A stretch of DNA of 35,885 nucleotides from Gammaproteobacteria bacterium (GCA_050298595.1 JBNKUM010000035.1:1-35885); one strand, 5' to 3'; numbered from the stretch's first letter, positions 1,511-35,885 are shown. The notes: a model not told the origin generated them from the letters alone. A program made the numbers and translations.

Positions 1511-1582
1511 CCATAACGACTAAGCTCAGCCGACACGAAACCGCGCAGCGGTTGAGCGGTCGGCTGGAGCGCCTTGTTGGGC
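1511..1582 (-). repeat. attC site (cassette L4)
   Basis: Minus strand GCCCAAC ... GTTATGG, 72 bp imperfect palindrome (CAGCCGAC/GTCGGCTG). Confidence 0.9.
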
Positions 1583-1586
1583 GACA

Positions 1587-1988
1587 CTACATACAGAAGC
1601 CCGAATACACATATTCTCCGCTACTCGTATAGGTAAATGGTTTCTTCAACCATTTGCGATGATTTGCGACGTACAAATAGCCTACGGCTACATATGGGCC
1701 ATGGCTTTTTGAGACTACATAGTATGAATTGCTATCAGGCTCGTTAATAACTTCGACGGTTTTACTTGGCCTATTGTTGATGAAATAACCGCCCCTTATT
1801 TCCCCGCTTTTTCGTTCGACCGAGAACGTCGAACCAATCTGCTTTTTCAAGTGTCCTGTTTCTGTGACGAGTTCTCCATCCTCGGAGACAGCATGTACAG
1901 ATGTCACAGTGCACTCAAAGCTGTCAACGCCAGCGAAGCTTAGGCTGGGGAGTAGAGATAGCACTATCGTGATTATTGAATATCTCAT
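1587..1988 (-). CDS. secreted hypothetical protein (cassette L4)
   Basis: Start moved to ATG at 1988 (MRYSIITIVLSLLPSLSFA signal peptide, AAGGA RBS); the track start at 2009 lies inside the attC. Confidence 0.8.
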   Translation of the reverse strand: MRYSIITIVLSLLPSLSFAGVDSFECTVTSVHAVSEDGELVTETGHLKKQIGSTFSVERKSGEIRGGYFINNRPSKTVEVINEPDSNSYYVVSKSHGPYVAVGYLYVANHRKWLKKPFTYTSSGEYVYSGFCM

Positions 1989-2003
1989 TTCCTTTCCTTT
2001 GAC

Positions 2004-2108
2004 GCCCAACGCCTAGCATCAGCCGACCATTGTAGCGGTGTGAGGCTTGTGGCATCAGCCACAAACGAAACGCCGCGGAAATGGGTCGGCTGAATGCAAT
2101 TGTTAGGA
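2004..2108 (-). repeat. attC site (cassette L3)
   Basis: Minus strand TCCTAAC ... GTTGGGC, 105 bp, stems CAGCCGACC/GGTCGGCTG and TTGTGGC/GCCACAA. Confidence 0.92.
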
Positions 2109-2115
2109 GCGAATT

Positions 2116-2982
2116 TCACTCCTGACCTTCCTGTAACATTCTTCTGCCTTCTTCTGTCTTGGCTAGCTCTTTAATAGCATCATTAAACTTGCTTTTCTCT
2201 CTTATATGCATCAGCACGGCGCGTCCAAAGTGTGTAATTCTATAACTAGCCACTCCATTCTGTGGCCCTTTCAATAACTCAGGTGTAATTTCCTTGAATA
2301 TCGTTTCAAACATACCCAGCCCTAGAAGCCTGTTAATAGCTGTAACTCTTTCTGTGTTACCCAATACTTCTCCCATAGTACGAGTGCTAGGATGGGGAAT
2401 ATCTCTAATCGATTCTTGAAGTAAATAATACATAGTGACATCAACTGACCTTGACGCATTTTCTACGGAAATACGCCTTCTATCATCAATTGATTTGAGT
2501 GCATTTAACATAAGGCCAACCACTTTCTCAATTGCCCCTTCAATATCATCTGGGTTGTATTTATGTACCCTGACTCCTGATATGTCGAAATCTAATATAT
2601 CGTTATCTGATCTGAGCAATATTACTTCTTCTGGAAGCCTACACGCATGAGCTAAACCTACCTCATACAGTACGTTTGCATTTCTAATTGGTTTATTTGT
2701 TTTTCCGTCAATTGGCAAATATCCGAACGTAGATACATCAGCTATAACTAATCTAGATTCCGAAATATTCTTAACTATTTCTGTAATGAGAGAGTCATTT
2801 TTATTTTCCAAATCAACTCTGTGAGCCTCTAAAGGCTCATTATTTACCAATACTTTAAGAGCGGCCGGGTATATTACTTTTTCCCACCGATCATTAAATT
2901 TCGGATCAAAGCTCATCGCCACAAAAACCATATTGGTCTTTGGGAATGGGGGAAATAAATTCATTAATTCCGCTGGATACAT
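2116..2982 (-). CDS. nucleoside 2-deoxyribosyltransferase-like / TIR-related protein with C-terminal extension (cassette L3)
   Basis: FVAMSF ... HRVD ... IVKNISESRLVIADVS ... NANVLYEVGLAHA motif pattern. Confidence 0.7.
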   Translation of the reverse strand: MYPAELMNLFPPFPKTNMVFVAMSFDPKFNDRWEKVIYPAALKVLVNNEPLEAHRVDLENKNDSLITEIVKNISESRLVIADVSTFGYLPIDGKTNKPIRNANVLYEVGLAHACRLPEEVILLRSDNDILDFDISGVRVHKYNPDDIEGAIEKVVGLMLNALKSIDDRRRISVENASRSVDVTMYYLLQESIRDIPHPSTRTMGEVLGNTERVTAINRLLGLGMFETIFKEITPELLKGPQNGVASYRITHFGRAVLMHIREKSKFNDAIKELAKTEEGRRMLQEGQE

Positions 2983-2998
2983 AAAAACTCTCTTTTGC

Positions 2999-3085
2999 TC
3001 CTAACGCCCTGCATCACTGGGAAATTTAAGCTGCGCAACGAAGTGGAGCTGCTTAAATTTATCTATGTGAATGCGATTGTTAGGC
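2999..3085 (-). repeat. attC site (cassette L2)
   Basis: Minus strand GCCTAAC ... GTTAGGA, 87 bp, stem AAATTTAAGC/GCTTAAATTT. Confidence 0.9.
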
Positions 3086-3086
3086 A

Positions 3087-3569
3087 TTATCCATTTATAA
3101 AGGTTGCTTTCACTCTTTTTGATACGAGCATATATGGAACCCAAACAACAACCATAAATAGTGAGCGCATTAGTTCCTTGATGGTGTCCGGATCAAACAC
3201 TGGTTCATTTGGAAGAACCAATTTAAAAGCAAAGGCATCAGCAACAATAAATATTAAACTAAAGACCGCTAGTCCAATATACCATTTCGGAAAAACCAGT
3301 TTCTTTGAGAAAAACAAATATGCCATATATAGCCAAGCTATTAGTACTCCAATATTAATTATTATTTCACCGATAATAAATGGCCCCCATAGCGGGTTAT
3401 AAGCTTCACTTCCTTGAGTTGTTAAAACCTCCCATGCGCCTGTTGAAAATATTTCAGGGTAAGTTGTCATCATCAGCATCACTAATCTGATAGGTGTAAC
3501 AACAATTCCGATAGCAACTACAATTAACCAGCCGCCGATTCCTTCGAGGTTTTTTTCTTCATTCTCCAT
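3087..3569 (-). CDS. DUF2569 (YdgK-like) membrane protein (cassette L2)
   Basis: GIGGWLIVVAIG N-terminus, four hydrophobic segments, WVPYMLVSKRVKATF C-terminal motif. Confidence 0.8.
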   Translation of the reverse strand: MENEEKNLEGIGGWLIVVAIGIVVTPIRLVMLMMTTYPEIFSTGAWEVLTTQGSEAYNPLWGPFIIGEIIINIGVLIAWLYMAYLFFSKKLVFPKWYIGLAVFSLIFIVADAFAFKLVLPNEPVFDPDTIKELMRSLFMVVVWVPYMLVSKRVKATFING

Positions 3570-3585
3570 ATTTTTCTCCTTTTTT

Positions 3586-3663
3586 GCCTAACGCTGACAT
3601 AAGCGGCCGAGCGATAGCGAGGTCCGGCGACCGCAGGGAGCAAACTTAATGTTTTTGTTAGGC
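3586..3663 (-). repeat. attC site (cassette L1)
   Basis: Minus strand GCCTAAC (overlapping the L1 stop) ... GTTAGGC, 78 bp. Confidence 0.88.
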
Positions 3664-4062
3664 TTTAAGTTCTGCTTCAATAATTTTTCTAAACCTATCA
3701 TCTGCTATTCCAGGCATTGATGATCGACAAAAATCAATCGCATAAGTAATTGTGTCGAAATACTCGTCATTCTCAATTGGATAAAATAAGCCGCACAATA
3801 CAGCCTTCAATGCTTCACCTTGAGGTGTTCCTTTGTGGTTTTTTTCTAAGTCTTCAAATACCAATACTCTGATATTTACCAAATCATTTCCATCAGCTTC
3901 ACCTGATAGGTAGCGGTCAATTACGTCAATGGCATTCTGCCCCGATGGCGGCATTACATTTTTTATCAATTTACAGAATTCAACCACACAACTTAATACG
4001 TGTCGGCCTTTATTCTCGAACAACCTTGGCTCTACTTCTTCAATATAGTCTCTTAGATCCAT
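3658..4062 (-). CDS. hypothetical protein, possibly Imm5-like immunity protein (cassette L1)
   Basis: 134 aa ORF; the NAIDVIDRYLSGEADGNDL helical pattern is reminiscent of Imm5-like domains (weak assignment). Confidence 0.6.
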   Translation of the reverse strand: MDLRDYIEEVEPRLFENKGRHVLSCVVEFCKLIKNVMPPSGQNAIDVIDRYLSGEADGNDLVNIRVLVFEDLEKNHKGTPQGEALKAVLCGLFYPIENDEYFDTITYAIDFCRSSMPGIADDRFRKIIEAELKA

Positions 4063-4073
4063 TTCTTAATGAA

Positions 4074-4146
4074 GCCTAACAGCTGATTATATTACACGCA
4101 CGCATATTGACTTATATTGCACGCACGTATATTGACTTATGTTGCA
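4074..4146 (-). repeat. attI-like site, left array (25-bp direct repeats + GTTAGGC core)
   Basis: Plus strand TTATATTACACGCACGCATATTGAC (4087-4111), TTATATTGCACGCACGTATATTGAC (4112-4136), TTATGTTGCA (4137-4146); the minus-strand core GTTAGGC at 4080-4074 matches the GCCTAAC of the first attC. Confidence 0.8.
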
Positions 4147-14869: not shown

Positions 14870-16141
14870 TCAGGCCTTGTCCAGTGCCTGATCTATATCA
14901 GCAATAATATCGTCGATATGTTCAATTCCGACAGAGATTCTTACCAGATCCTCTGATACACCGGCGGTTGCCAGCTCTTCTGGGCTCAACTGTCTATGCG
15001 TAGTGGTCGCAGGATGACAGGCCAGTGATTTGGCATCACCGATATTCACCAGACGTAGAATCATCTGCAAGGCGTCTATGAATTTAGCGCCAGCCTCCTT
15101 GCCACCATTAATCCCAAAGCTGAGTATGCCGGAAGCCTGCCCATTAGTGATTTTCTGGCAGGTGCTGTGAAATTTACTACCAGGCAGGGCGGCATAATTG
15201 ACCCATGCCACCTTAGGATGGTTTTGCAGGTGCTGCGCCACCTTTAATGCGTTTTCGCAGTGACGTTCCATACGCAATCCCAGTGTTTCCAGCCCCTGTA
15301 ACAACAGGAATGCGCTATGTGGTGCCAGTGCAGAACCGGTATTTCGTAATGGCACTACACGACAACGTCCGATGTATGCAGCAGGCCCCAGCGCTTCGGT
15401 ATAAACAACACCATGGTAAGAAGGATCGGGTTCATTCAACATAGGGAAGCGCTCTTTATTGCCTGCCCAGTCAAATTTACCAGAATCGATAATAATGCCA
15501 CCGATGGTAGTGCCATGGCCGCCGATATATTTGGTCAATGAGTGAATAATGATATCCGCACCATGATCGAAAGCGCGACATAGATAAGGTGTCGCTACCG
15601 TATTATCGACGATTAATGGCAAGCCATGTTTATGTGCGATTTCAGCCAACTTTTCAATATCGACGATATTGCCCGCAGGGTTACCAATCGATTCACAGAA
15701 TACGGCACGCGTTTTATCATCGATAAAGCTTTCCAGTTTTTCGTATTCATCGAATGAGGCCATACGTACTTCAATACCCTGACGCGGCAGGGTATGCGCA
15801 AACAGGTTATAGGTGCCACCATACAGCTGAGAGGTGCTGACAATGTTGTCACCAGTCTGGCTGATTGCCTGAATCGAATAGGTGATGGCGGCCATGCCAG
15901 ATGCCACGGCAAGAGCACCGATACCACCTTCCATTTCGGCCAGACGCTGCTCCAGCACCGCAGTGGTCGGATTCATAATACGGGTATAGATATTACCAGC
16001 AACCTTGAGGTCGAACAGGTCTGCACCATGCTGAGTATCATCAAAGGTATAGGATGTGGTTTGATAGATGGGAACTGCTGCTGCCCTGGTGGTTGCTTCG
16101 GATTCATAGCCATGGTGTAAAGCCAGTGACTCAAGTTTCAT
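14870..16141 (-). CDS. metY: O-acetylhomoserine/O-acetylserine sulfhydrylase
   Basis: PIYQTTSY, GNIYTRIMNPT, HSLTKYIGGHG PLP lysine motif, NIGDAKSL. Confidence 0.93.
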   Translation of the reverse strand: MKLESLALHHGYESEATTRAAAVPIYQTTSYTFDDTQHGADLFDLKVAGNIYTRIMNPTTAVLEQRLAEMEGGIGALAVASGMAAITYSIQAISQTGDNIVSTSQLYGGTYNLFAHTLPRQGIEVRMASFDEYEKLESFIDDKTRAVFCESIGNPAGNIVDIEKLAEIAHKHGLPLIVDNTVATPYLCRAFDHGADIIIHSLTKYIGGHGTTIGGIIIDSGKFDWAGNKERFPMLNEPDPSYHGVVYTEALGPAAYIGRCRVVPLRNTGSALAPHSAFLLLQGLETLGLRMERHCENALKVAQHLQNHPKVAWVNYAALPGSKFHSTCQKITNGQASGILSFGINGGKEAGAKFIDALQMILRLVNIGDAKSLACHPATTTHRQLSPEELATAGVSEDLVRISVGIEHIDDIIADIDQALDKA

Positions 16142-28489: not shown

Positions 28490-28876
28490 ATGCGCATCTT
28501 ACACACCATGCTACGAGTCGGCGATCAGGATCGCTCGATCAAGTTTTATACCGAAGTTTTAGGTATGAAGCTAATTCGTCAAACAGACTACCCTGAAGGG
28601 AAATTTACCAACACCTTCATCGGCTATGGCGATGAATCCGAACAGGCGACAATAGAATTTACCTATAACTGGGATACCGACAGCTACGACCTCGGCAATG
28701 GCTATGGACATATCGCGCTAGAGGTCGATGATGTGTATGCAGCCACCGAGGAGATCCGCAAACGAGGTGGCAAGATCATACGCGATGCCGGGCCAATGAA
28801 TGCAGGTACCACCATAATCGCTTTCGTCGAAGACCCCGATGGATATCAGATAGAGTTGATTGGCAAAAAGTCCTGA
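28490..28876 (+). CDS. gloA: lactoylglutathione lyase (glyoxalase I)
   Basis: [32 protein letters not shown]. Confidence 0.97.
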
Positions 28877-29018
28877 TCGATATTTGGGGTTTTGGAGTGG
28901 TAACACACGCTATGGGAGATGGATTAACTGTAAATTGTTAAAAAATAGGAAAAGGAAAATGAGGAGTGAGGAGAGGTTGATTCAGTATCATAAGAATCAG
29001 GGAATGCTGCGGAAATTT

Positions 29019-29092
29019 TGCAACATAAGTCAATATACGTGCGTGCAACATAACTCAATAATTGTGCGTGTCAAATAATCAAGCTGTTAGCT
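29019..29092 (+). repeat. attI-like site, right array (25-bp direct repeats + GTTAGCT core)
   Basis: TGCAACATAAGTCAATATACGTGCG (29019-29043), TGCAACATAACTCAATAATTGTGCG (29044-29068), ATAATCAAGCT then GTTAGCT (29086-29092), complementary to AGCTAAC of the first attC. Confidence 0.8.
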
Positions 29093-29114
29093 GCAAAACA
29101 GGAATGGGAAGATT

Positions 29115-29903
29115 ATGCCAACTTATGATGTAGTCATTTCTTTCGCTGGAGAAGATAGAGAAATAGCATCCTCCATTGCCTCAAATCTCGTTACGAGAGG
29201 GGTTAGTGTTTTTTATGACGAATATGAGCAGGCCAACCTATGGGGAAAAGACCTGTATGTTCATCTAACAAAAATATACAGAGATGAGTCAAAGTTCTGT
29301 TTGATGATGATTTCAGAAAATTATGCAAAGAAACAATGGACAAATCATGAGAGGAAAGCTGCTCAGGCTAGAGCATTCCAAGAAAATAGTGAGTATATTC
29401 TTCCACTTCGATTAGATGATGCAGAGATAGAAGGAATACTAAATACGACTGGTTACATTGATTACCGGAACGTATCTTTAGAGCGTATCGTAAACCTCCT
29501 ATCGGAGAAAATAATTGAATATAACAAGGATAATGGCATTACATACGATATTGTGAAGGCAGAAACAGTCTTTGAAAAAGCCATTGATTTCAAGGGTGAT
29601 CGTCCTTTCCGAGATAGTGACATGAATACCGAGTGCCCGGCTTGTGGCACCAAACAGAACCTCTCTGAGGCAACTCTATCACTTGATGGTGATGATACTA
29701 TTTATTCTTGTAAAAACGGGTGCCAACCATTAGCGGTTATAAGTCGTCCCGGTATGGTTGCATGGCCTGGAAGAGGATTTAGGCTTCAAGACTATGTAGT
29801 GAGAAATATCAGGGATATTGTTATAAAAACAGAGAGTATGGGAGCTCCTTTACTTATACCAGCTAGCAAAGCTGCTTTAATGAAGGTGAGGCCCAGCAGC
29901 TAA
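29115..29903 (+). CDS. TIR-domain protein with C-terminal Cys cluster (cassette R1)
   Basis: YDVVISFAGEDR, VSVFYD, WTNHERKAA (catalytic Glu), ILPLRLD; CPAC...CKNGC. Confidence 0.9.
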   Translation: MPTYDVVISFAGEDREIASSIASNLVTRGVSVFYDEYEQANLWGKDLYVHLTKIYRDESKFCLMMISENYAKKQWTNHERKAAQARAFQENSEYILPLRLDDAEIEGILNTTGYIDYRNVSLERIVNLLSEKIIEYNKDNGITYDIVKAETVFEKAIDFKGDRPFRDSDMNTECPACGTKQNLSEATLSLDGDDTIYSCKNGCQPLAVISRPGMVAWPGRGFRLQDYVVRNIRDIVIKTESMGAPLLIPASKAALMKVRPSS

Positions 29904-30008
29904 CAATTGCATTAACCGGAGCTATCTCCGCGGTGTTTTTTGTGTGCTAAAAGAGCATAGCACACAAAAAACACTACTACAGTAGCCCGGTTATGCTGAG
30001 CGTTATGC
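29898..30008 (+). repeat. attC site (R1)
   Basis: AGCTAAC ... GTTATGC, 111 bp, long stem GTGTTTTTTGTGTGCTA/TAGCACACAAAAAACAC. Confidence 0.93.
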
Positions 30009-30028
30009 ATAAAAATACGGAGAAGTGA

Positions 30029-30496
30029 ATGTATCAGAGACAAGCCCTTGCTTTAGGGTCTTTAGTTTTCCTTGTGATTGTCGGATTAATTACAGTAATT
30101 TTAGCGTTTTGGGCATGGCCTAAATATAACGTGTATAAAATGGAATTGAATGGTAGAGCAGCCTTGAAAGAAGCAGAGTGGTCAAAGCAAATTTTGATTG
30201 AAGAGGCCAAAGCGAGAGAGCAAGCAGCTCTTATGCAAGCAAAGGCAAAAGTTACTCTAGCTGAAGCAGAAGGAAAAGCAAAAATTGTCCGTGCAAAAGC
30301 TGAGGGCGCAGCAGATATTGAAAGAGCCAAAGCAGCCGCAGAAGCAAATAGAATTATCGGAGAGTCACTCAAAAACAATGAAGAGTATCTTCGTTATATC
30401 TGGATTAAAGGGCTTCAAGATGGAAAGGGGGAACGCATTTATATTCCAACTGAAGCAGGACTTCCCATTTTAGAGGCAGGTAAGGCAGGCAAGTAA
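30029..30496 (+). CDS. membrane-anchored coiled-coil protein, SPFH/band-7 C-terminal-like (cassette R2)
   Basis: N-terminal TM, AEAE/AKA-rich coil, YLRYIWI, IYIPTEAGLPILEA. Confidence 0.75.
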   Translation: MYQRQALALGSLVFLVIVGLITVILAFWAWPKYNVYKMELNGRAALKEAEWSKQILIEEAKAREQAALMQAKAKVTLAEAEGKAKIVRAKAEGAADIERAKAAAEANRIIGESLKNNEEYLRYIWIKGLQDGKGERIYIPTEAGLPILEAGKAGK

Positions 30497-30497
30497 T

Positions 30498-30549
30498 GCA
30501 TGAAACATGATAATGAGACCCGGGGGTCTCGTTTATCATTCTGTTAAGC
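30498..30549 (+). repeat. atypical short cassette junction site, copy 1
   Basis: GCATGAA-ACATGATAATGAGACCCGGGGGTCTCGTTTATCATTCT-GTTAAGC, 52 bp. Confidence 0.85.
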
Positions 30550-30570
30550 GTTCTCAGGAGTCAGAGTTCG

Positions 30571-31038
30571 GTGGAATATAAAATAGTAGATGAAGAAAAA
30601 TCCAACGATGTCGCAAAGTTGGCTGTTTGCCTAACCAATGAAATTATAGAAAGAACGGGCATTAAGCACTTTGATGTGGATATTCCTTTAGCAGAAAAAC
30701 TGTGCAAGAAATTTATGGAGCAGGGTATATACACTGTAGTTGCTGCATTTAATAACGATCGGATCGTGGGATTCGGAGCTTTATGCGAAAGCCATTCGCT
30801 TTACGCAGAAGGCACATTTGGAAGTATTCAAGAATTTTATGTATTGCCAGAATTTCGGTCGAAATCAATTGGCAAAGAGTTACTTGAAAGCCTTGTTAGT
30901 TACGCGAAATCCAGGCAATGGGTAAGGCTTGAGTTATGTACTCCGCCAATCCCAGAGTTTGATAGAACAGTTTCGTTTTATAAAGAAAATGGTTTTGAAA
31001 TAACCGGTGGTTACAAAATGAAGTATACAGTCGCTTAA
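30571..31038 (+). CDS. GNAT family N-acetyltransferase (cassette R3)
   Basis: EFYVLPEFRSKSIGKELL acetyl-CoA motif, FYKENGF. Confidence 0.9.
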   Translation: MEYKIVDEEKSNDVAKLAVCLTNEIIERTGIKHFDVDIPLAEKLCKKFMEQGIYTVVAAFNNDRIVGFGALCESHSLYAEGTFGSIQEFYVLPEFRSKSIGKELLESLVSYAKSRQWVRLELCTPPIPEFDRTVSFYKENGFEITGGYKMKYTVA

Positions 31039-31082
31039 AATATTATAGCTAGACAAGAAGCTTGTTAATACAACAGTTATGA
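31033..31082 (+). repeat. atypical short cassette junction site (divergent)
   Basis: GCTTAAA ... GACAAG-AAG-CTTGTT hairpin ... GTTATGA, 50 bp; the left box mirrors the GTTAAGC that opens R3. Confidence 0.65.
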
Positions 31083-31097
31083 GCGGAGTAACCACAA

Positions 31098-31586
31098 ATG
31101 GAATTTATAGTCGATAGCGCCGAAAATCTTGACGTGTCAGATGATGAAATATTTGATCTGCTGTCACAAGTTTACGTGCAAGCAGGTTTTGCTTCTGCTG
31201 AGATAGCCAAAACAGTATTTGATCCAGTCAAGGTTAGAGATAGAGGGGCGCTTATTGTATCTCAGGAAATATCAGAAAATGAATTTTCTGGAATGGTGAT
31301 TGTTGTTCCTCCAAAGTCACAAGCCATTGTGAGGGCTAAAGAAAATGAATGTGAAATGCATTTGTTGGGCGTTAGGCCTAAGTATAGAGGGCATGGGCTC
31401 GGTCGTAGGCTGGTGAGTAAAGCTATTGATTTTGCAACGGATAAAAATTGGTCAAAAATGATCTTGTGGACTCAAAAGTCAATGAAAGAAGCTCAGAATC
31501 TGTATGAGTCATCTGGGTTTGTTCGATCCGGGGAGATGACAAAAAATGGCATTGAGTTTTTTGTTTATGAGAGAATATGCACATGA
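31098..31586 (+). CDS. GNAT family N-acetyltransferase (cassette R4)
   Basis: LGVRPKYRGHGLGRRLV, AQNLYESSGF. Confidence 0.92.
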   Translation: MEFIVDSAENLDVSDDEIFDLLSQVYVQAGFASAEIAKTVFDPVKVRDRGALIVSQEISENEFSGMVIVVPPKSQAIVRAKENECEMHLLGVRPKYRGHGLGRRLVSKAIDFATDKNWSKMILWTQKSMKEAQNLYESSGFVRSGEMTKNGIEFFVYERICT

Positions 31587-31631
31587 AAATAAATAGCGAG
31601 ACAATCGGTTTCGTTATCGCAACTGTCAAGC
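31581..31631 (+). repeat. atypical short cassette junction site (divergent)
   Basis: ACATGAA ... ATAGCGAGAC/GTTTCGTTAT hairpin ... GTCAAGC, 51 bp; GTCAAGC mirrors the GCTTAAC that closes R5. Confidence 0.65.
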
Positions 31632-31644
31632 ACCCGGTAAAGTT

Positions 31645-31986
31645 ATGAGCGTTATCAATATTGACATCGCAGATCACTATAAATGGGGGAATGGATCAGA
31701 TGGGTGGCATCTTTTAAAATCTGACTCGCTTAGCATAATTCAAGAAAGAGTATCACCTGGTGAGTGTGAGCTGCGCCATTACCACAATAACTCACAGCAA
31801 TTCTTTTACATACTATCTGGTGTCGCTCACATTGAGATATCGAGTGAGGTTCATGAAGTAAGCAAAGGAAACGGTCTCCATGTTCCAGCCAAGGAGCCAC
31901 ATCAATTAATGAATTAAGGAAATGTTGATCTTGTTTTCTTGGTGGTGTCAGAGCCTAAGAGTCACGGCGATCGAGTCAATGCTTAA
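31645..31986 (+). pseudogene. cupin-domain gene with in-frame TAA at 31915-31917 (cassette R5)
   Basis: HYH...QFFYILSG and HVPAKEPH cupin motifs; the frame continues after the stop as GNVDLVFLVVSEPKSHGDRVNA*, ending in the attC. Confidence 0.85.
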
Positions 31987-32040
31987 CAAGCGCGTTAAAT
32001 GCGACGCTCGTTCCTCGCGCACTTTATGCGGGCGTTAGGC
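31981..32040 (+). repeat. attC site (R5)
   Basis: GCTTAAC ... GTTAGGC, 60 bp canonical short attC. Confidence 0.9.
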
Positions 32041-32059
32041 AATAGAAGGAGTTTTTGCT

Positions 32060-32410
32060 ATGCAAAAGGAAATATTCCAAGAAATAACTGATAGCGTTAT
32101 AGGCTCGTTGCCAAATGAATGGTTGGAATTCATTGTTAAATATCAGGTCGAGGGAAACCAAAGCCAATTCTTAAATAGCTATCTAGTTTTGGAGAATGAG
32201 AAACTAACAGAAAAATCAATCCCATCAATAACCAATTTGGATGTGCTTCTTAGGCGACTTCAAGACGAGGTTGCAATCGGAAATAAAGAAAGGTTTACAG
32301 AATGCATCATTCACGTGAAGGCAAGCGGTGAGTTTGATGCAAACTATTCTTACGAACCTATTGATTGGGACAAGCTAGATTTAGGTTGGAATTTTAGAGA
32401 AAATGCCTAA
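32060..32410 (+). CDS. YezG/DUF600-like immunity protein (cassette R6)
   Basis: EIFQEI...LPNEW, LLRRLQ, FTECIIHVKASGEFDANYSY pattern. Confidence 0.65.
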   Translation: MQKEIFQEITDSVIGSLPNEWLEFIVKYQVEGNQSQFLNSYLVLENEKLTEKSIPSITNLDVLLRRLQDEVAIGNKERFTECIIHVKASGEFDANYSYEPIDWDKLDLGWNFRENA

Positions 32411-32456
32411 AACATGATAATGAGACCCGGAGGTCTCGTTTATCATTCTGTTAGCT
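32405..32456 (+). repeat. atypical short cassette junction site, copy 2
   Basis: GCCTAAA-ACATGATAATGAGACCCGGAGGTCTCGTTTATCATTCT-GTTAGCT, 52 bp. Confidence 0.85.
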
Positions 32457-32464
32457 TGTAAATA

Positions 32465-32857
32465 ATGAATAGCGTAATCATACATTTCAAAGGCCCAAGC
32501 TACGAAGAAATTGAAAGTAGAGCTAAAGATATCAAAATTATCGATGGTTCTTGTTCATCTGAGGAAGGCGAAAATTTTCAATTCTGGCGATATGAAGATT
32601 ACAAAACAGAATATGCCCCCGAGGAAAAATCAATAGTTGAGAATTCAATCGGTGGTAAACCGACAGCAAGCTTTCAACTGTTGTGTCGAACTTCATGTGG
32701 GCGCTTTGCACTAGATAAAATGATAAAACTATTTTCAATCGTAGAAGGTGTTATGGATGATGATAATGATGGTTACTGGCAACTCAAACAGATGAAAAGT
32801 GCATATTTGAATAGTTCGGCATCGAATATATACAACTTAAATGAACACACAAGCTAA
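32465..32857 (+). CDS. hypothetical protein (cassette R7)
   Basis: 130 aa ORF filling the cassette; stop lies within the attC AGCTAAC. Confidence 0.75.
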   Translation: MNSVIIHFKGPSYEEIESRAKDIKIIDGSCSSEEGENFQFWRYEDYKTEYAPEEKSIVENSIGGKPTASFQLLCRTSCGRFALDKMIKLFSIVEGVMDDDNDGYWQLKQMKSAYLNSSASNIYNLNEHTS

Positions 32858-32911
32858 CCAGGTGCTACACTCGGACTCGCTACCGCTCGCCGGTGAGCGC
32901 AAACGTTAACT
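32852..32911 (+). repeat. attC site (R7)
   Basis: AGCTAAC ... GTTAACT, 60 bp. Confidence 0.88.
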
Positions 32912-32926
32912 ATAGAAGCAGGAACG

Positions 32927-33718
32927 ATGAAATATCGAATATTAGGTTTAGTTTTTATGCTGTTTTCGATTGGAGGGGTAGTGGCTCAGGAAATTGTATA
33001 TAAAGACAGTGAAGGGAATGTCCTAACCAAGTCAGAACTAGAAAACTATTCAGGAGAAGCAAATTGGGAAATATCTCTTGGAAAAAGCATTTCAAGTAAA
33101 GCAAAAGAGCTACATGCCGAAGCCAGGAAAATGGGTCAACAAGGTGAGTACGATAACTCAATAGAGCTATTGAGAAAAGCCTCTGATCTAGAGCCTAAGT
33201 GGGCTTATCCAATCTACGATATGGCTTTCACATATATGCTAAAGAATAATTATGAAAAGGCGCTCGAACTATATCGTAAAGTAGATAAAATGGAATCTAG
33301 GGGATTTTTTACTACGAAAACAGCAATATATACTTTAGAAGGAGAGAGTAGCGGGAAGTACCCAAAAGGGCTCTATATGGCTTACCTAAGTCTTGAGTGG
33401 ATGGACAAGAAGGAAAAATCAGAACTGATATTGAAGCTGATTAATAACTTTCCAAACTATGCGGCTGCATGGAAAGAACTTGCCGCTTTAGCTGGAAATG
33501 ATGAAACTGCAATGCAGGCCATTGAGCAAGGATTAAGCGCTAACCCCGATGCGGAAACGTACGGATTATTAATGATTAATAAAGCTTTGGTTCTTAGCAG
33601 AGGCGGAGAACAAGACAAGGCGATCTCAATGTTAGGGGCGCTTGGCACAAATAGTAAATCAACCATCGCAACAGTAATGTTGGCTAAAGAAACCATTGCA
33701 AACTTACTGAGTAAATAA
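32927..33718 (+). CDS. secreted TPR-repeat protein (cassette R8)
   Basis: Signal peptide MKYRILGLVFMLFSIGGVVA; TPR patterns (GEYDNSIELLRKASDLEP, YEKALELYRKV). Confidence 0.85.
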   Translation: MKYRILGLVFMLFSIGGVVAQEIVYKDSEGNVLTKSELENYSGEANWEISLGKSISSKAKELHAEARKMGQQGEYDNSIELLRKASDLEPKWAYPIYDMAFTYMLKNNYEKALELYRKVDKMESRGFFTTKTAIYTLEGESSGKYPKGLYMAYLSLEWMDKKEKSELILKLINNFPNYAAAWKELAALAGNDETAMQAIEQGLSANPDAETYGLLMINKALVLSRGGEQDKAISMLGALGTNSKSTIATVMLAKETIANLLSK

Positions 33719-33719
33719 T

Positions 33720-33782
33720 AGTTAACAAGGCCATCAATTTGATGGCGCAGAAGCCGCGCCACAAATTATGGCGTCATTATGT
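33720..33782 (+). repeat. attC site (R8) with mutated core (ATT instead of GTT)
   Basis: AGTTAAC ... ATTATGT, 63 bp, stem TGGCGC/GCGCCA. Confidence 0.85.
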
Positions 33783-33798
33783 GTAAGTAGATGGGACT

Positions 33799-34134
33799 AT
33801 GATTAAATCGAAAAAGATAGATAAGGCCAATTCGTTTTTTAAAGAATGGGATGGTTCTGATGCCGAATTTAATCACTTTGTCGATTCTATGAGTAATAGA
33901 TTTACTATTGGCGTATATAAAGAAGGCTTAGAGCCTACCGGTATTAGTTTTTCTGCATGCCAATTTATCCAGGGTCCGACCTTCTGGAAAAATATGCGTC
34001 TACGATGTAGTGCAGTAGAGTATGACGGAGTTGATTGTTTTAAGGTTTGCGATGAAGCTGCTGGTTTCAAAGTGATAGTCGGATCTGGTATCACAGGTGG
34101 AGGCATTAATTTTAGTGTCACTGTTAGCGAATAA
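33799..34134 (+). CDS. hypothetical protein (cassette R9)
   Basis: 111 aa ORF filling the cassette. Confidence 0.75.
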   Translation: MIKSKKIDKANSFFKEWDGSDAEFNHFVDSMSNRFTIGVYKEGLEPTGISFSACQFIQGPTFWKNMRLRCSAVEYDGVDCFKVCDEAAGFKVIVGSGITGGGINFSVTVSE

Positions 34135-34136
34135 TC

Positions 34137-34188
34137 ACATAAAACATGATAATGAGACCCGGGGGTCTCGTTTATCATTCTGTTATAA
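34137..34188 (+). repeat. atypical short cassette junction site, copy 3
   Basis: ACATAAA-ACATGATAATGAGACCCGGGGGTCTCGTTTATCATTCT-GTTATAA, 52 bp. Confidence 0.85.
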
Positions 34189-34196
34189 TTAAGTTA

Positions 34197-34886
34197 ATGT
34201 TTGAACTACCATCAGATAGGGAAATATTAGATGCTATAGATGAGAATAATATCTCAATTTTAGCTGGCCTTTGCATGCCGTTAGCAAAAACACATGATAA
34301 CTGGAGATTTTCTCAGGATATTTGCGTCAAACTATCAGTACATAATGATCCTTCTATAAGAAGAGATGCTATTTTAAGTTTATCCTTGATTACTTTATTT
34401 CATCATAAAATTGAAAAGAACATTATCAAACCAGTTCTTTTAAATAGCTTAGAAGATAAAGATCAAAAAGTCAGAGAAGCAGCGCAAACTGCCATTAATG
34501 ACATAAACAATTGGATGAATTGGCATATCGGCAATGCTCAAAAAAATAAACGAAAAATAAAACCAATAAAAGAGCAAAATAATATTAATAAACCAAGAAT
34601 TAAATTTTCATTTGAAGGTAGTCTGCTGCAAGCGTTAATATCTATTTCCTTCGAGTTTGAAAACTGCGGCAAGGTAGGGGATATCCTTTATAGTACGAGT
34701 GGTAGTAAAAAATCCTTCAAGCTAAATGACAATGATTTTATATGCGTTTATAAAGGCTTGCTTAGAGCTATTGAAAGCCATCGATATCCTAATAAAAGTG
34801 GTAAAGAATACAATTCTGTAAAAGAATTAATAAAAATATTTGAGCAATTGCATCTTGAGCAGAGGTATACTGAAATACAATTATAA
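34197..34886 (+). CDS. HEAT-repeat-containing protein (cassette R10)
   Basis: HNDPSIRRDAILSL and EDKDQKVREAAQTAI HEAT motifs; start moved to ATG 34197 because 34146 lies within the junction site. Confidence 0.75.
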   Translation: MFELPSDREILDAIDENNISILAGLCMPLAKTHDNWRFSQDICVKLSVHNDPSIRRDAILSLSLITLFHHKIEKNIIKPVLLNSLEDKDQKVREAAQTAINDINNWMNWHIGNAQKNKRKIKPIKEQNNINKPRIKFSFEGSLLQALISISFEFENCGKVGDILYSTSGSKKSFKLNDNDFICVYKGLLRAIESHRYPNKSGKEYNSVKELIKIFEQLHLEQRYTEIQL

Positions 34887-34968
34887 CAAGCACTTTAAAA
34901 CGGACGCGTGGCACCAGTGTGCCGCTTCTTCATCGCCATGGCGCGTGCCGTTTAAGTGAGCGTTAGGC
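34881..34968 (+). repeat. attC site (R10)
   Basis: TTATAAC ... GTTAGGC, 88 bp, stems CACTT/AAGTG and AAACGG/CCGTTT. Confidence 0.9.
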
Positions 34969-34991
34969 ACGGTCAAAGGAGTAATATTTTT

Positions 34992-35453
34992 GTGAAGTTA
35001 TTAGCAATTTCAGCTTTAGTGTTTTTAAGTATTGGATTAAATGGAAAGGCCATGAGTGAAGAAGTAGAGAGTCAGTCATTAGAAAAAAGCGATGTAACGG
35101 AAATTTCTACCCCTCTAAAAGAGGCATTTGCTAAAGCTAGAAAAGAAAGAAATGCAGCAATAAGTCTGGTGGAATTTTGGAAGACGGATGTATTTGTAAT
35201 CGTTGAAAAGGCATCCGACACACATTTCTACCCTGCTTTCACTCGGTCACCAAATAAAGAAAAATGGGCAGTAACTGTTGCGGAAAAAGAAGAATGGCTC
35301 AAAGCTGACAAATGGCCAAAAATGAAGTTGTCTGGCGGGCAAATTATTCAAATGCTTGGTGAAGACAAGGAAATAGTTATAGTTTACCCAGATGGCGGTG
35401 ATTATATTACGAGCAATCAGTTATCATGGATCAGAGAGCAGTTAAAAGAATAG
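34992..35453 (+). CDS. exported hypothetical protein, SseB-N-like (cassette R11)
   Basis: AAGGAG RBS before GTG 34992, signal peptide; KLSGGQIIQML...IVIVYP pattern (weak family call). Confidence 0.65.
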   Translation: MKLLAISALVFLSIGLNGKAMSEEVESQSLEKSDVTEISTPLKEAFAKARKERNAAISLVEFWKTDVFVIVEKASDTHFYPAFTRSPNKEKWAVTVAEKEEWLKADKWPKMKLSGGQIIQMLGEDKEIVIVYPDGGDYITSNQLSWIREQLKE

Positions 35454-35560
35454 CGAGGCCTTAAAAAGTGTATCTCCACCCAGGGGCAACAAGTAGGTTC
35501 GTACTTGGTAAGTGGGCTAGGGTTTATCATGAGAATTTTGAGTTTCTTGCAAGGTCGCTG

Positions 35561-35669
35561 GCCTAACAATGGCAATTGAGAGGGACATGCTCTCCCCAGC
35601 GTTTCGTTTGTGGCTTGATGCCACAAGCCTCACACCGCTCCGGCAAGCCTCTCATTGCTGGCGTTAGAT
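35561..35669 (+). repeat. attC site (R11)
   Basis: GCCTAAC ... GTTAGAT, 109 bp. Confidence 0.92.
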
Positions 35670-35681
35670 GTATAAAGGAAA

Positions 35682-35885
35682 ATGAAAAATATATTTATAC
35701 TTATTGCCTTATTTAGTATGTCATTTGTTTCTATGGCTACCGATAAACAAATGACAATGGACCCGAATAAAGTCAAATATAATAATTATGTTCATAAAGA
35801 GTTACCTGCTTCTTTATTGCCTAGAATAAAAGCAACTACTGACGTCTTCGAAATCGTAGATGGCATTTCGTATGAAAATGCTATT
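35682..35885 (+). CDS. secreted hypothetical protein, truncated by the window end (cassette R12)
   Basis: AAGGA RBS, MKNIFILIALFSMSFVSMA signal peptide, open to the end of the window. Confidence 0.75.
   Translation, partial: MKNIFILIALFSMSFVSMATDKQMTMDPNKVKYNNYVHKELPASLLPRIKATTDVFEIVDGISYENAI

Follow-up and report, generated by a model that had tools for sequence, protein, structure and literature searches.

Probable attI-Derived Cassette Junctions in a Chromosomal Integron Array of an Uncultivated Gammaproteobacterium

Results and Discussion

The Array and Its Two Kinds of Junction

The stretch of DNA analyzed here (the window; 35,885 nucleotides (nt), Gammaproteobacteria bacterium, GCA_050298595.1, JBNKUM010000035.1:1-35885) is the whole of contig C35 in a 5.49-Mb genome, G000, that was assembled in 119 contigs. 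On its + strand, an integron cassette array spans position 29084 to the contig end. It is directly preceded by gloA and holds eleven short open reading frames (ORFs) whose products include a TIR-domain protein, two GNAT acetyltransferases, a cupin, a YezG-like immunity protein, and TPR/HEAT proteins (Pfam). Six of its 11 junctions are canonical attC sites, and five, at 30498, 31033, 31581, 32405, and 34137, are not (Table 1). Comparison with related genomes suggests that these five are attI-type cassette junctions, probably derived from the attI site of an integron integrase (intI) lineage present in the same genus, and that they correspond, on a chromosome, to the delta-attI cassettes known from class 1 and 2 integrons.

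No integrase gene was found among the annotated genes of the window, nor any other recombinase gene in this array. Elsewhere, G000 carries three integron integrase genes: an intact one on C89 (466 bits), one on C75 (374 bits), and one on C99 with an in-frame TGA and TAA. Other tyrosine recombinases of the genome are weak matches to TIGR02249.

Table 1. Positions of the junctions and related features in the right-hand array (in G/TT, the slash marks the crossover point; R1 and R2 are covariance models)
Feature	Coordinates	Strand	Remarks
Type-1 attI-like array start	29019..29086	+	Two 25-nt direct repeats, then crossover GTT at 29084; gloA upstream, no intI near
Canonical attC	29898..30008	+	R1 27.9 bits, R2 40.1 bits; extra bases on left arm
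Main-type hairpin junction N1	30498..30549	+	52 nt; missed by attC models
Probable composite three-ORF unit	30545..32034	+	From G/TT of N1 to canonical attC 31981-32040; N2 and N3 inside
GNAT ORF of unit (Pfam)	30571..31038
Diverged hairpin junction N2	31033..31083	+	No AAC; weak fold; closest to type-2 array-start hairpin on C85
GNAT ORF of unit (Pfam)	31098..31586
Diverged hairpin junction N3	31581..31631	+	No AAC; right box GTC; closest to type-2 array-start hairpin C85:162658
Cupin ORF of unit (Pfam)	31645..31917
Canonical attC	31981..32040	+	R1 44 bits, R2 39.2 bits
Main-type hairpin junction N4	32405..32456	+	Loop variant with one A; left box mirrors own cassette's opening box 6/6
Canonical attC	32852..32911	+	R1 39.7 bits, R2 36.9 bits; left-arm extra bases at positions 9, 13, 17
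Canonical attC	33720..33782	+	R1 31.1 bits, R2 27.9 bits; right box ATT, not GTT
Main-type hairpin junction N5	34137..34188	+	Left box mirrors own cassette's opening box
Canonical attC	34881..34968	+	R1 17.4 bits, R2 33.6 bits
Canonical attC	35561..35669	+	R1 15.6 bits, R2 32 bits

Five Junctions Escape Models of Canonical attC

We built two covariance models from sites of G000: R1 (alignment A1) from 13 canonical attC sites and R2 (alignment A2) from 42 R1 hits. The R1 structure, comprising 11 pairs, was supplied by hand; RNAalifold applied to a MAFFT alignment of the 13 sites gave no pairs. These home-made models, which differ from the published IntegronFinder model, were run over positions 28800-35885 on both strands with filters off and E<=10. 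All six canonical junctions were found on the + strand (R1, 15.6-44 bits; R2, 27.9-40 bits), and none of the other five matched either model on either strand. An earlier sequence-only reading of this locus had counted five non-canonical junctions among the 11, as we do, and had expected an attC model to miss them or to hit the opposite strand; the outcome was a miss on both. A strict regular-expression finder for attC missed even sites of the window, and its fold-filtered version was used solely to locate arrays.

According to PMC5027507, the extrahelical bases of canonical attC lie on the left, top-strand arm (L''), at about positions 16 and 23-24 with 6 bp between them, and site lengths are quoted as 57-141 bp. 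Among 66 canonical hits, the extra bases were more numerous on the left arm in 53, equal in 5, and more numerous on the right in 8, a count in which seed orientation outside the window was set partly by the left-arm feature itself. They peak 8-9, 13, and 16-17 nt after the box, in agreement with published positions 16, 20, and 23-24. One canonical site of the window has ATT in place of the crossover GTT (33776-33778), as do two canonical sites of related arrays (L051 and L052).

The Main-Type Sites Share One Hairpin with Its Bulge on the Right Arm

Junctions N1, N4, and N5, which we call the main type, are 92-94% identical over 52 nt, bearing out their earlier description as near-identical, and have a single invariant hairpin site of 44 nt in common. 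From left to right, N1 begins with a left box made up of the R'' arm of its own cassette and AAC. Inner stems, a 4-nt loop, and a bulge on the right arm follow, then TCT, and finally G/TT with the first bases of the next cassette. A 33-nt core occurs seven times in G000 (three copies on C35, two on C110, and one each on C102 and C111), each time within a cassette array, and the reversed control pattern occurs 0 times.

The main-type sites fold better than shuffled sequences on both strands (z -3.0 to -4.7), with minimum free energies for N1, N4, and N5 of -9, -9.8, and -9 kcal/mol on the top strand and -9, -10.4, and -9 kcal/mol on the bottom strand. Their sole top-strand-specific pair is one T-G at the base of the inner stem. 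A single unpaired base lies on the right arm and none on the left, opposite to the arrangement in canonical sites. Two metagenome variants keep the right-arm bulge with a different base, and one of them has C-G in place of T-G. The strand asymmetry of these sites is therefore structural, without an energy difference: the right-arm position of the unpaired bases, as first described, is confirmed, whereas the proposed folding asymmetry in favor of the top strand has no counterpart in the energies. The lengths of the central spacer, 5 nt on the left and 6 nt on the right, agree with the 5-6 nt per arm of the unpaired canonical spacer, but three spacer positions can pair. A terminator scan flagged none of the five junctions, and an Rfam scan of the window gave no match at the gathering threshold.

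The Left Box Belongs to the Cassette and Is Followed by a Conserved Block

The register of the left box was determined from 13 cassettes that end in a main-type site and have a known upstream junction; 12 of these open at a canonical attC and one at a hairpin site. Over all 13, the left box is the reverse complement of the cassette's own opening box at 69 of 91 positions. Re-paired boxes match at a mean of 44.2 of 91, and 0 of 20,000 re-pairings reach 69. When the register is moved by two, which brings the AAC of the site into the canonical place, matches fall to 29 of 91.

In this register, the triplet of main-type sites is AAA in 13 of 13 cassettes, as opposed to the canonical AAC. The cassette arm RYYYAA (the mirror of the opening TTRRRY) is followed by a conserved block that starts with AAC where canonical sites have C alone, so the AAC of the site lies two bases inward of the canonical register, abutting the inner stem, and the base opposite the crossover G is A. 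The sequence-only reading had described left boxes that end in AA-A rather than AA-C and otherwise mirror the cassette opening, and this stands. Its statement that AAC is absent applies to N2 and N3 but not to the three main copies, in which the triplet is displaced. A right box GTTRRRY with boundary G/TT is present in the main type and in N2; N3 has GTC there. The spacing (on the left, a 7-nt box, then 5 nt and the inner stem; on the right, 6 nt before a 7-nt box) follows the canonical rule given in PMC5027507.

Hairpin sites are co-oriented with canonical attC in all 12 related loci that have both (14 were searched, two of them without a canonical hit) and in all four G000 contigs. All array ORFs are co-oriented with the canonical sites, and ORF stop codons fall within the left box or immediately upstream of it. 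Where a canonical cassette comes after a hairpin site, it opens exactly at the G/TT of that site, and its own attC mirrors those bases (for example, 9/9 for the cassette at 32450). Because these downstream cassettes start at G/TT, the exchange point would lie at the right end, as in ordinary attC. Main-type junctions thus appear to act as ordinary cassette boundaries in array orientation.

An Identical Site Adjoins intI in Related Genomes

An exact-pattern scan of species-representative genomes found the core in 41 DNA stretches, nearly all from bins named 'Gammaproteobacteria bacterium' and with one copy in a bin labelled Marinilabiliaceae. Within the taxonomic family, it is present in 7 of 79 genomes, G000 included, with 0 matches to the reversed control. 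Each of the 55 non-duplicate copies is located at a cassette boundary or array start and ends in G/TT plus variable TTRRRY-type bases. The copies have 36 distinct upstream flanks: 35 are ends of different cassettes, and one is an attI flank.

At locus L027 (G073:C128), a 165-nt region separates the start of a C99-type intI from the hairpin, which is followed by a first cassette and a canonical attC. The core of the window sites, together with its A-run and TCTG, is identical to this intI-proximal site, and N1 is 100% identical to it from the A-run to the G. The resemblance noted earlier between the 3' end of these sites and the attI-like end at 29066-29086 is real and extends, in the L027 comparison, to the whole intI-proximal site. 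In G000, the first 87 nt of C110 equal the L027 intI-proximal region and site at 100%, and bases 1-828 of C99 equal the adjoining intI side at 87.5%; by contig-end overlap with L027, the ends of C99 and C110 fall 28 nt apart within one palindrome.

A search of the family with the L027 integrase fragment recovered four further orthologues in the genus (G000, G074, G075, and G076) and a 45%-identical one in another genus. A hairpin site occupies the same intI-adjacent position in G074, G075, and G076 as in L027. The hairpins of G074 and G075 are small variants of the main type. In G076, whose integrase is 70% identical in amino acid sequence, a type-2 hairpin stands beside intI, and the first cassette ends in an identical second type-2 copy. 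Array starts in L023 and on C30 that have no integrase likewise retain the intI-to-hairpin sequence, there with diverged hairpins.

Across four genomes, three different right neighbors adjoin the intI-proximal copy, and G074:C30 and public sequencing run X5 add a fourth and a fifth, whereas 13 of 13 internal flanks that are seen in at least two genome bins keep a single right neighbor. Variability confined to the intI-proximal copy is the behavior expected of an attI, and the constant copies look like stable internal junctions. The earlier suggestion that the five sites are attI-like internal entry points consequently holds for the attI-like part, through identity of the 42-45-nt site with the intI-proximal one, and not for entry: the 13 constant flanks lend no support to frequent insertion at internal copies.

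The C99-type intI carries in-frame stops (mostly TGA) or a truncation in every case examined (G000 C99:136-1020, G074:C30, G075:C35, G076:C339, and G073:C128). The adjoining attI flank and hairpin, by contrast, match at 100% in G000 and G073. In the 165 nt between the L027 intI and the site, we found no opening box that mirrors the left box.

A palindrome of ~33 nt, with a half-site resembling the hairpin arms, lies between intI and the hairpin attI (L027 5540-5575; G000 C99 1-30), and is the point at which two contigs of G000 end. Its role may be that of an accessory site for the integrase or of a regulator site.

Two Diverged Junctions Lie within a Probable Three-ORF Unit

N2 and N3 are diverged. 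They fold no better than shuffles (z -0.39 and -0.50 on the two strands for N2; -0.32 and -0.81 for N3). The extra bases of N2 lie on the left arm, not the right, and N3 could form two G-T pairs on the top strand only. When aligned to N1, both outscore all 5000 shuffles and all 892 control windows taken from the array. Their match to a type-2 variant on C85 is closer still, with scores of 22 for N2 and 19 for N3 against 6 and 6 for the main type (p<=0.001). N2 and N3 thus appear to descend from a second, type-2 hairpin attI variant and to have lost most of its pairing.

The outer boxes of the stretch that contains N2 and N3 mirror each other at 7 of 7 positions (opening box after 30543; left box of the attC at 31981). 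In public runs distinct from X1, the likely source, contigs bridge N2 (X5, X6, and X8) and N3 (X6). In X5, the whole three-ORF unit follows the attI flank in the place of cassette 2. We compared runs X5, X6, and X8, leaving aside the small-share runs X7 and X9-X11. We also set aside joints whose shorter side is <30 letters (29053>34137, 29085>35663, and 34188>34903), together with a backward joint in X6 between identical cores, which may stem from repeats or cycles in the contig graph. Given the missing AAC, the GTC of N3, the mirrored outer boxes, and the bridging contigs, we suggest that N2 and N3 no longer recombine. In this small sample, they are probably relic junctions inside a unit in which two GNAT genes and a cupin gene would have been fused into one mobile unit by the decay of N2 and N3. 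Of the functions once proposed for the whole set, that of excision-locked junctions creating multi-gene cassettes therefore fits these two.

Proposed Origin of the Main-Type Sites

We propose the following origin for the main type. In this genus, the C99-type integrase lineage would possess an attI region that ends in a short hairpin, TCT, and the crossover G/TT, and a part of it ~42 nt long, running from the A-run to the G, would have taken the place of attC in many cassettes. Each such cassette would keep its own left arm RYYYAA, joined straight to attI sequence beginning with AAC; because of this joint, the canonical C seems lost and AAC appears two bases further in. Most likely, an integrase would have made this joint by recombining the left edge of attI with the R'' box of a canonical attC. 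That the same C is lost had been advanced as an argument against random decay. That conclusion survives, since identical copies across genomes reject decay of canonical attC for the main type, but on other grounds, as the bases after RYYYAA would be attI sequence and not mutated attC.

A 2722-nt contig from run X8 offers a direct comparison. It includes the cassette 2 ORF (97% identical, with 13 differences over 500 nt, when aligned to 30002-30501) with a canonical attC after it and a type-2-like hairpin before it, and it parts from cassette 2 of the window inside the left box. The same gene therefore exists with either type of site, and the switch lies where the cassette arm meets the conserved block. 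Such joints would have been made by an integrase, and main-type sites would still be excisable.

The displaced register may also bear on strand choice. In assays of IntI1, identity between the two partner sites was required at the first nucleotide of the triplet alone (PMC2811028). An A in register could deprive the top strand of the nucleotide required to match its partner, such that a top-strand A against a partner C would fail, and this could offset the bulge on the 'wrong' arm.

The closest known parallel is the delta-attI cassette, in which an attI part ending at the crossover replaces attC after the ORF, follows the cassette's own left arm, and is set among canonical cassettes in arrays; such cassettes are proposed to arise by recombination of the attI L box with attC R'', and IntI1 excises and inserts them (PMC12901181, which cites Partridge et al. 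2000 and 2009 for cassettes of this type). Here, identity with an attI part ending at the crossover is seen between C110 and L027 (100% over 87 nt), in the internal copies from A-run to G, and in the type-2 copies of G076; by sequence comparison, the site adjoins intI in four genomes and has a variable right neighbor, as a point of cassette entry would; and attC is replaced downstream of the ORF in an otherwise normal array, with the homologous ORF of X8 retaining a canonical attC. The retained attI part of delta-attI cassettes is mostly 14-18 nt in the same source, as compared to ~42 nt here, palindromic and hairpin-bearing. Unlike the delta-attI cassettes of mobile integrons, the putative ones described here belong to chromosomal arrays, most of them without an integrase, in an uncultivated genus of gammaproteobacteria. 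At least 35 different cassettes carry the attI part, and two attI variants appear to have each given rise to internal copies.

Features in common with canonical attC are position at the 3' end of the cassette ORF, array orientation, right box GTTRRRY, complementary boxes, 7-5 / 6-7 spacing, and an imperfect hairpin. Canonical attC is a folded bottom-strand substrate with an R box, an unpaired central spacer, an L box with extrahelical bases, and a variable terminal structure. The main type differs in its AAA register, single right-arm bulge, spacer that could pair in part, 52-nt length, and escape from canonical-trained models. It also has no second extrahelical base, because the loop starts at that position.

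Like studied attI sites, the intI-proximal copy lies beside and divergent from intI, has a G/TT crossover, and is followed by a variable first cassette. Studied attI, as exemplified by attI1, has accessory direct repeats and a duplex simple site with L and R boxes a few bases apart, whereas the putative left and right elements here are ~40 nt apart with a palindrome between them, and folding alone could bring them together. The left element ends in an A-run plus AAC and may resemble the attI1 L box. We know of no studied attI whose left and right elements are separated by a palindrome. Occurrence of one near-invariant site on many unrelated ORFs recalls the homogeneous attC repeat families of sedentary chromosomal integrons, such as the Vibrio cholerae repeats (VCR). 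In VCR-type chromosomal integrons, the attC repeat differs from attI; here, by contrast, the repeat is the attI-position sequence and is mixed with heterogeneous canonical attC in one array.

Considerations against an attI Origin, and Alternatives

Several points weigh against derivation from attI. Support for it is comparative, and descent from attI into cassettes is read from two observations, conservation of the intI-to-hairpin region and the occurrence of diverged hairpins where other arrays start, not from a tree. The cognate intI is interrupted or truncated in every genome examined. With 44 identical bases in all copies, homologous recombination could also reshuffle cassettes. Complementarity of left and right boxes is what a folded attC needs, and the sites may simply work as attC; conversely, the internal type-2 copy of G076 shows little such complementarity, and the R'' exchange model may fail for some copies. 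The C99-C110 link in G000 rests on contig ends without a spanning read, the X8 comparison consists of two 30-letter loose-end consensus strings of one contig, and the covariance models were our own, made from G000 sites, rather than the published attC model.

The most serious alternative, which we consider possible though clearly less probable than an attI origin, is a minimal attC family peculiar to this lineage, comparable to the homogeneous repeats found in large chromosomal integrons, with the folded bottom strand as its recombining form. In that case, the intI-adjacent copy would be either an attC whose first cassette has been lost or an original attI overwritten by attC. This explanation overlaps with the one we favor, since an attI-derived site may itself work as attC. 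It accounts well for the 7-5 / 6-7 geometry, the strong R''/R' complementarity (69/91), folding superior to shuffles on both strands (z -3.0 to -4.7), ORF stops in or just before the left box, co-orientation with canonical attC in 12/12 loci, and the metagenome variants, which keep stem and bulge while the bulge base changes and one T-G becomes C-G. It accounts poorly for the intI-to-hairpin layout, which is kept in four genomes, two integrase lineages, and two hairpin variants, and for the 165 nt beside intI, which hold no opening box mirroring the left box. In addition, the bulge and the canonical extrahelical bases lie on opposite arms, the 52-nt site is shorter than the 57-141 bp quoted (both per PMC5027507), and canonical models miss the sites.

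It is improbable that the sites are a non-integron repeat between cassettes, whether an intrinsic terminator, a repetitive extragenic palindromic (REP)-like or miniature inverted-repeat transposable element (MITE)-like element, or a palindromic operator of a DNA-binding protein. The letters of the inner stem never co-vary across the main, type-2, and C30 variants, as would be the case for a sequence-specific protein site, and a related half-site forms the palindrome between intI and the hairpin. However, all 55 copies are at a cassette boundary or array start and end in G/TT plus variable TTRRRY-type bases, the core is in only 7/79 family genomes with all seven G000 copies inside arrays, and the terminator scan was silent on the sites.

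We regard as very unlikely a top-strand-recombining or functionally inverted attC, in which the bulge opposite the left AAC would let the top strand mimic a canonical bottom strand and cleavage would occur in the left box. The position of the bulge, the T-G pair possible on the top strand only, and the published shift of strand choice upon inversion of extrahelical bases (PMC5027507) would all suit this proposal, which goes back to the sequence-only reading. It is contradicted by the downstream canonical cassettes, which start exactly at the right-hand G/TT with perfectly mirrored boxes (9/9 at 32450); by cassettes that open at a canonical attC, end at a hairpin, and are still mirrored (12/13 rows); by the co-orientation of all ORFs and canonical sites, with hairpin sites following suit in 12/12 loci and 4/4 contigs; by the left AAC being two bases out of register, with AAA as register triplet; and by the equal energies of the strands. 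Equally implausible is the idea that the sites are canonical attC that decayed independently, or that another recombinase acts on them, the latter also proposed previously: N2 and N3 do fold like shuffled sequence and the genome does have other tyrosine recombinases (weak TIGR02249 matches), but 50 further copies across genomes are identical to the three main ones, the alignments of N2 and N3 to hairpin variants are significant, and the array is without another recombinase gene.

Returning to an attI origin, a bolder version of it is conceivable, although we hold it only tentatively and think it unlikely as a whole: integrons of this group would use a folded attC-like hairpin as attI, both insertion partners would be structured single strands, and the left hairpin edge would be a second cleavage point at which the integrase swaps attC for attI sequence. 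If true, cassettes could be re-tagged, and perhaps even created, in a natural way. Such a scheme would also account for both the presence of one invariant site on dozens of unrelated ORFs and the many dispersed integrase-less arrays of G000, each headed by an attI-like element.

A keyword search of the literature, which was not exhaustive, found no paper on hairpin attI or on attI-type cassettes in chromosomal integrons. In PMC4889954, attI sites are described as unknown for most chromosomal integrons, and the acquisition of recombination sites by cassettes as an open question. This lineage offers a sequence-defined candidate attI with an unusual hairpin, as well as at least 35 natural cassettes in which attC was apparently exchanged at one fixed left-box point, together with a homologous ORF that has a canonical attC. 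Until now, a few clinical delta-attI cassettes have been the basis of the attI x R'' exchange model; with this lineage, the model becomes testable on a large natural set, and the combination of an opposite-arm bulge with correct array orientation tests current ideas on strand choice. Annotation that relies on canonical-attC-trained models could merge cassettes or truncate arrays in this group.

Other Array Starts and Elements

Both arrays of the window begin with a hairpin-free, type-1 attI-like element. This element has nine G000 copies with a conserved upstream region of ~95 nt, all ending in the crossover GTT and each preceding a different cassette. Copies are found at window positions 29019-29086 and 4076-4146 (minus strand) and on C8, C22, C31, C64, C85, C86, C100, and C101, with weaker matches on C102 and C32. 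Where searched, type-1 starts have one to two canonical attC sites downstream and no intI nearby. In runs X5 and X8, the cassettes after the type-1 start differ from those of the window. So many dispersed attI-like array starts within one genome is unusual.

The left array, on the minus strand at 1511-4146, comprises a type-1 start and four canonical attC sites (1511-1582, 2004-2108, 2999-3085, and 3586-3663); no hairpin-type junction was found in it.

Type-2 or other hairpin attI-like elements head integrase-less mini-arrays at C85:162560-162700 (+), C85 ~167593-167634 (-), C85 253795-253840 (-), C32 507-633 (-), C97 9072-9169 (-), and C30 ~15072-15281 (-). A tblastn search with the C89 IntI (E<=1) found no intI remnants beside the integrase-less hairpin starts of L023, C30, C85, C32, and C97, apart from one 14-residue match at chance level. 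Two of the C85 elements face each other, ~5 kb apart, and the upstream region of type-2 array-start elements matches the intI-to-hairpin region of G076:C339.

A MITE-like repeat of ~170 nt with terminal inverted repeats lies directly upstream of several attI-like elements (G000 C8, C85, C100, and C30), beside a shared boundary motif. Within the three-ORF unit, the cupin ORF at 31645-31917 covers positions 4-58 of the 70-position Pfam Cupin_2 and stops ~60 nt before the attC; it may have been truncated by a premature stop.

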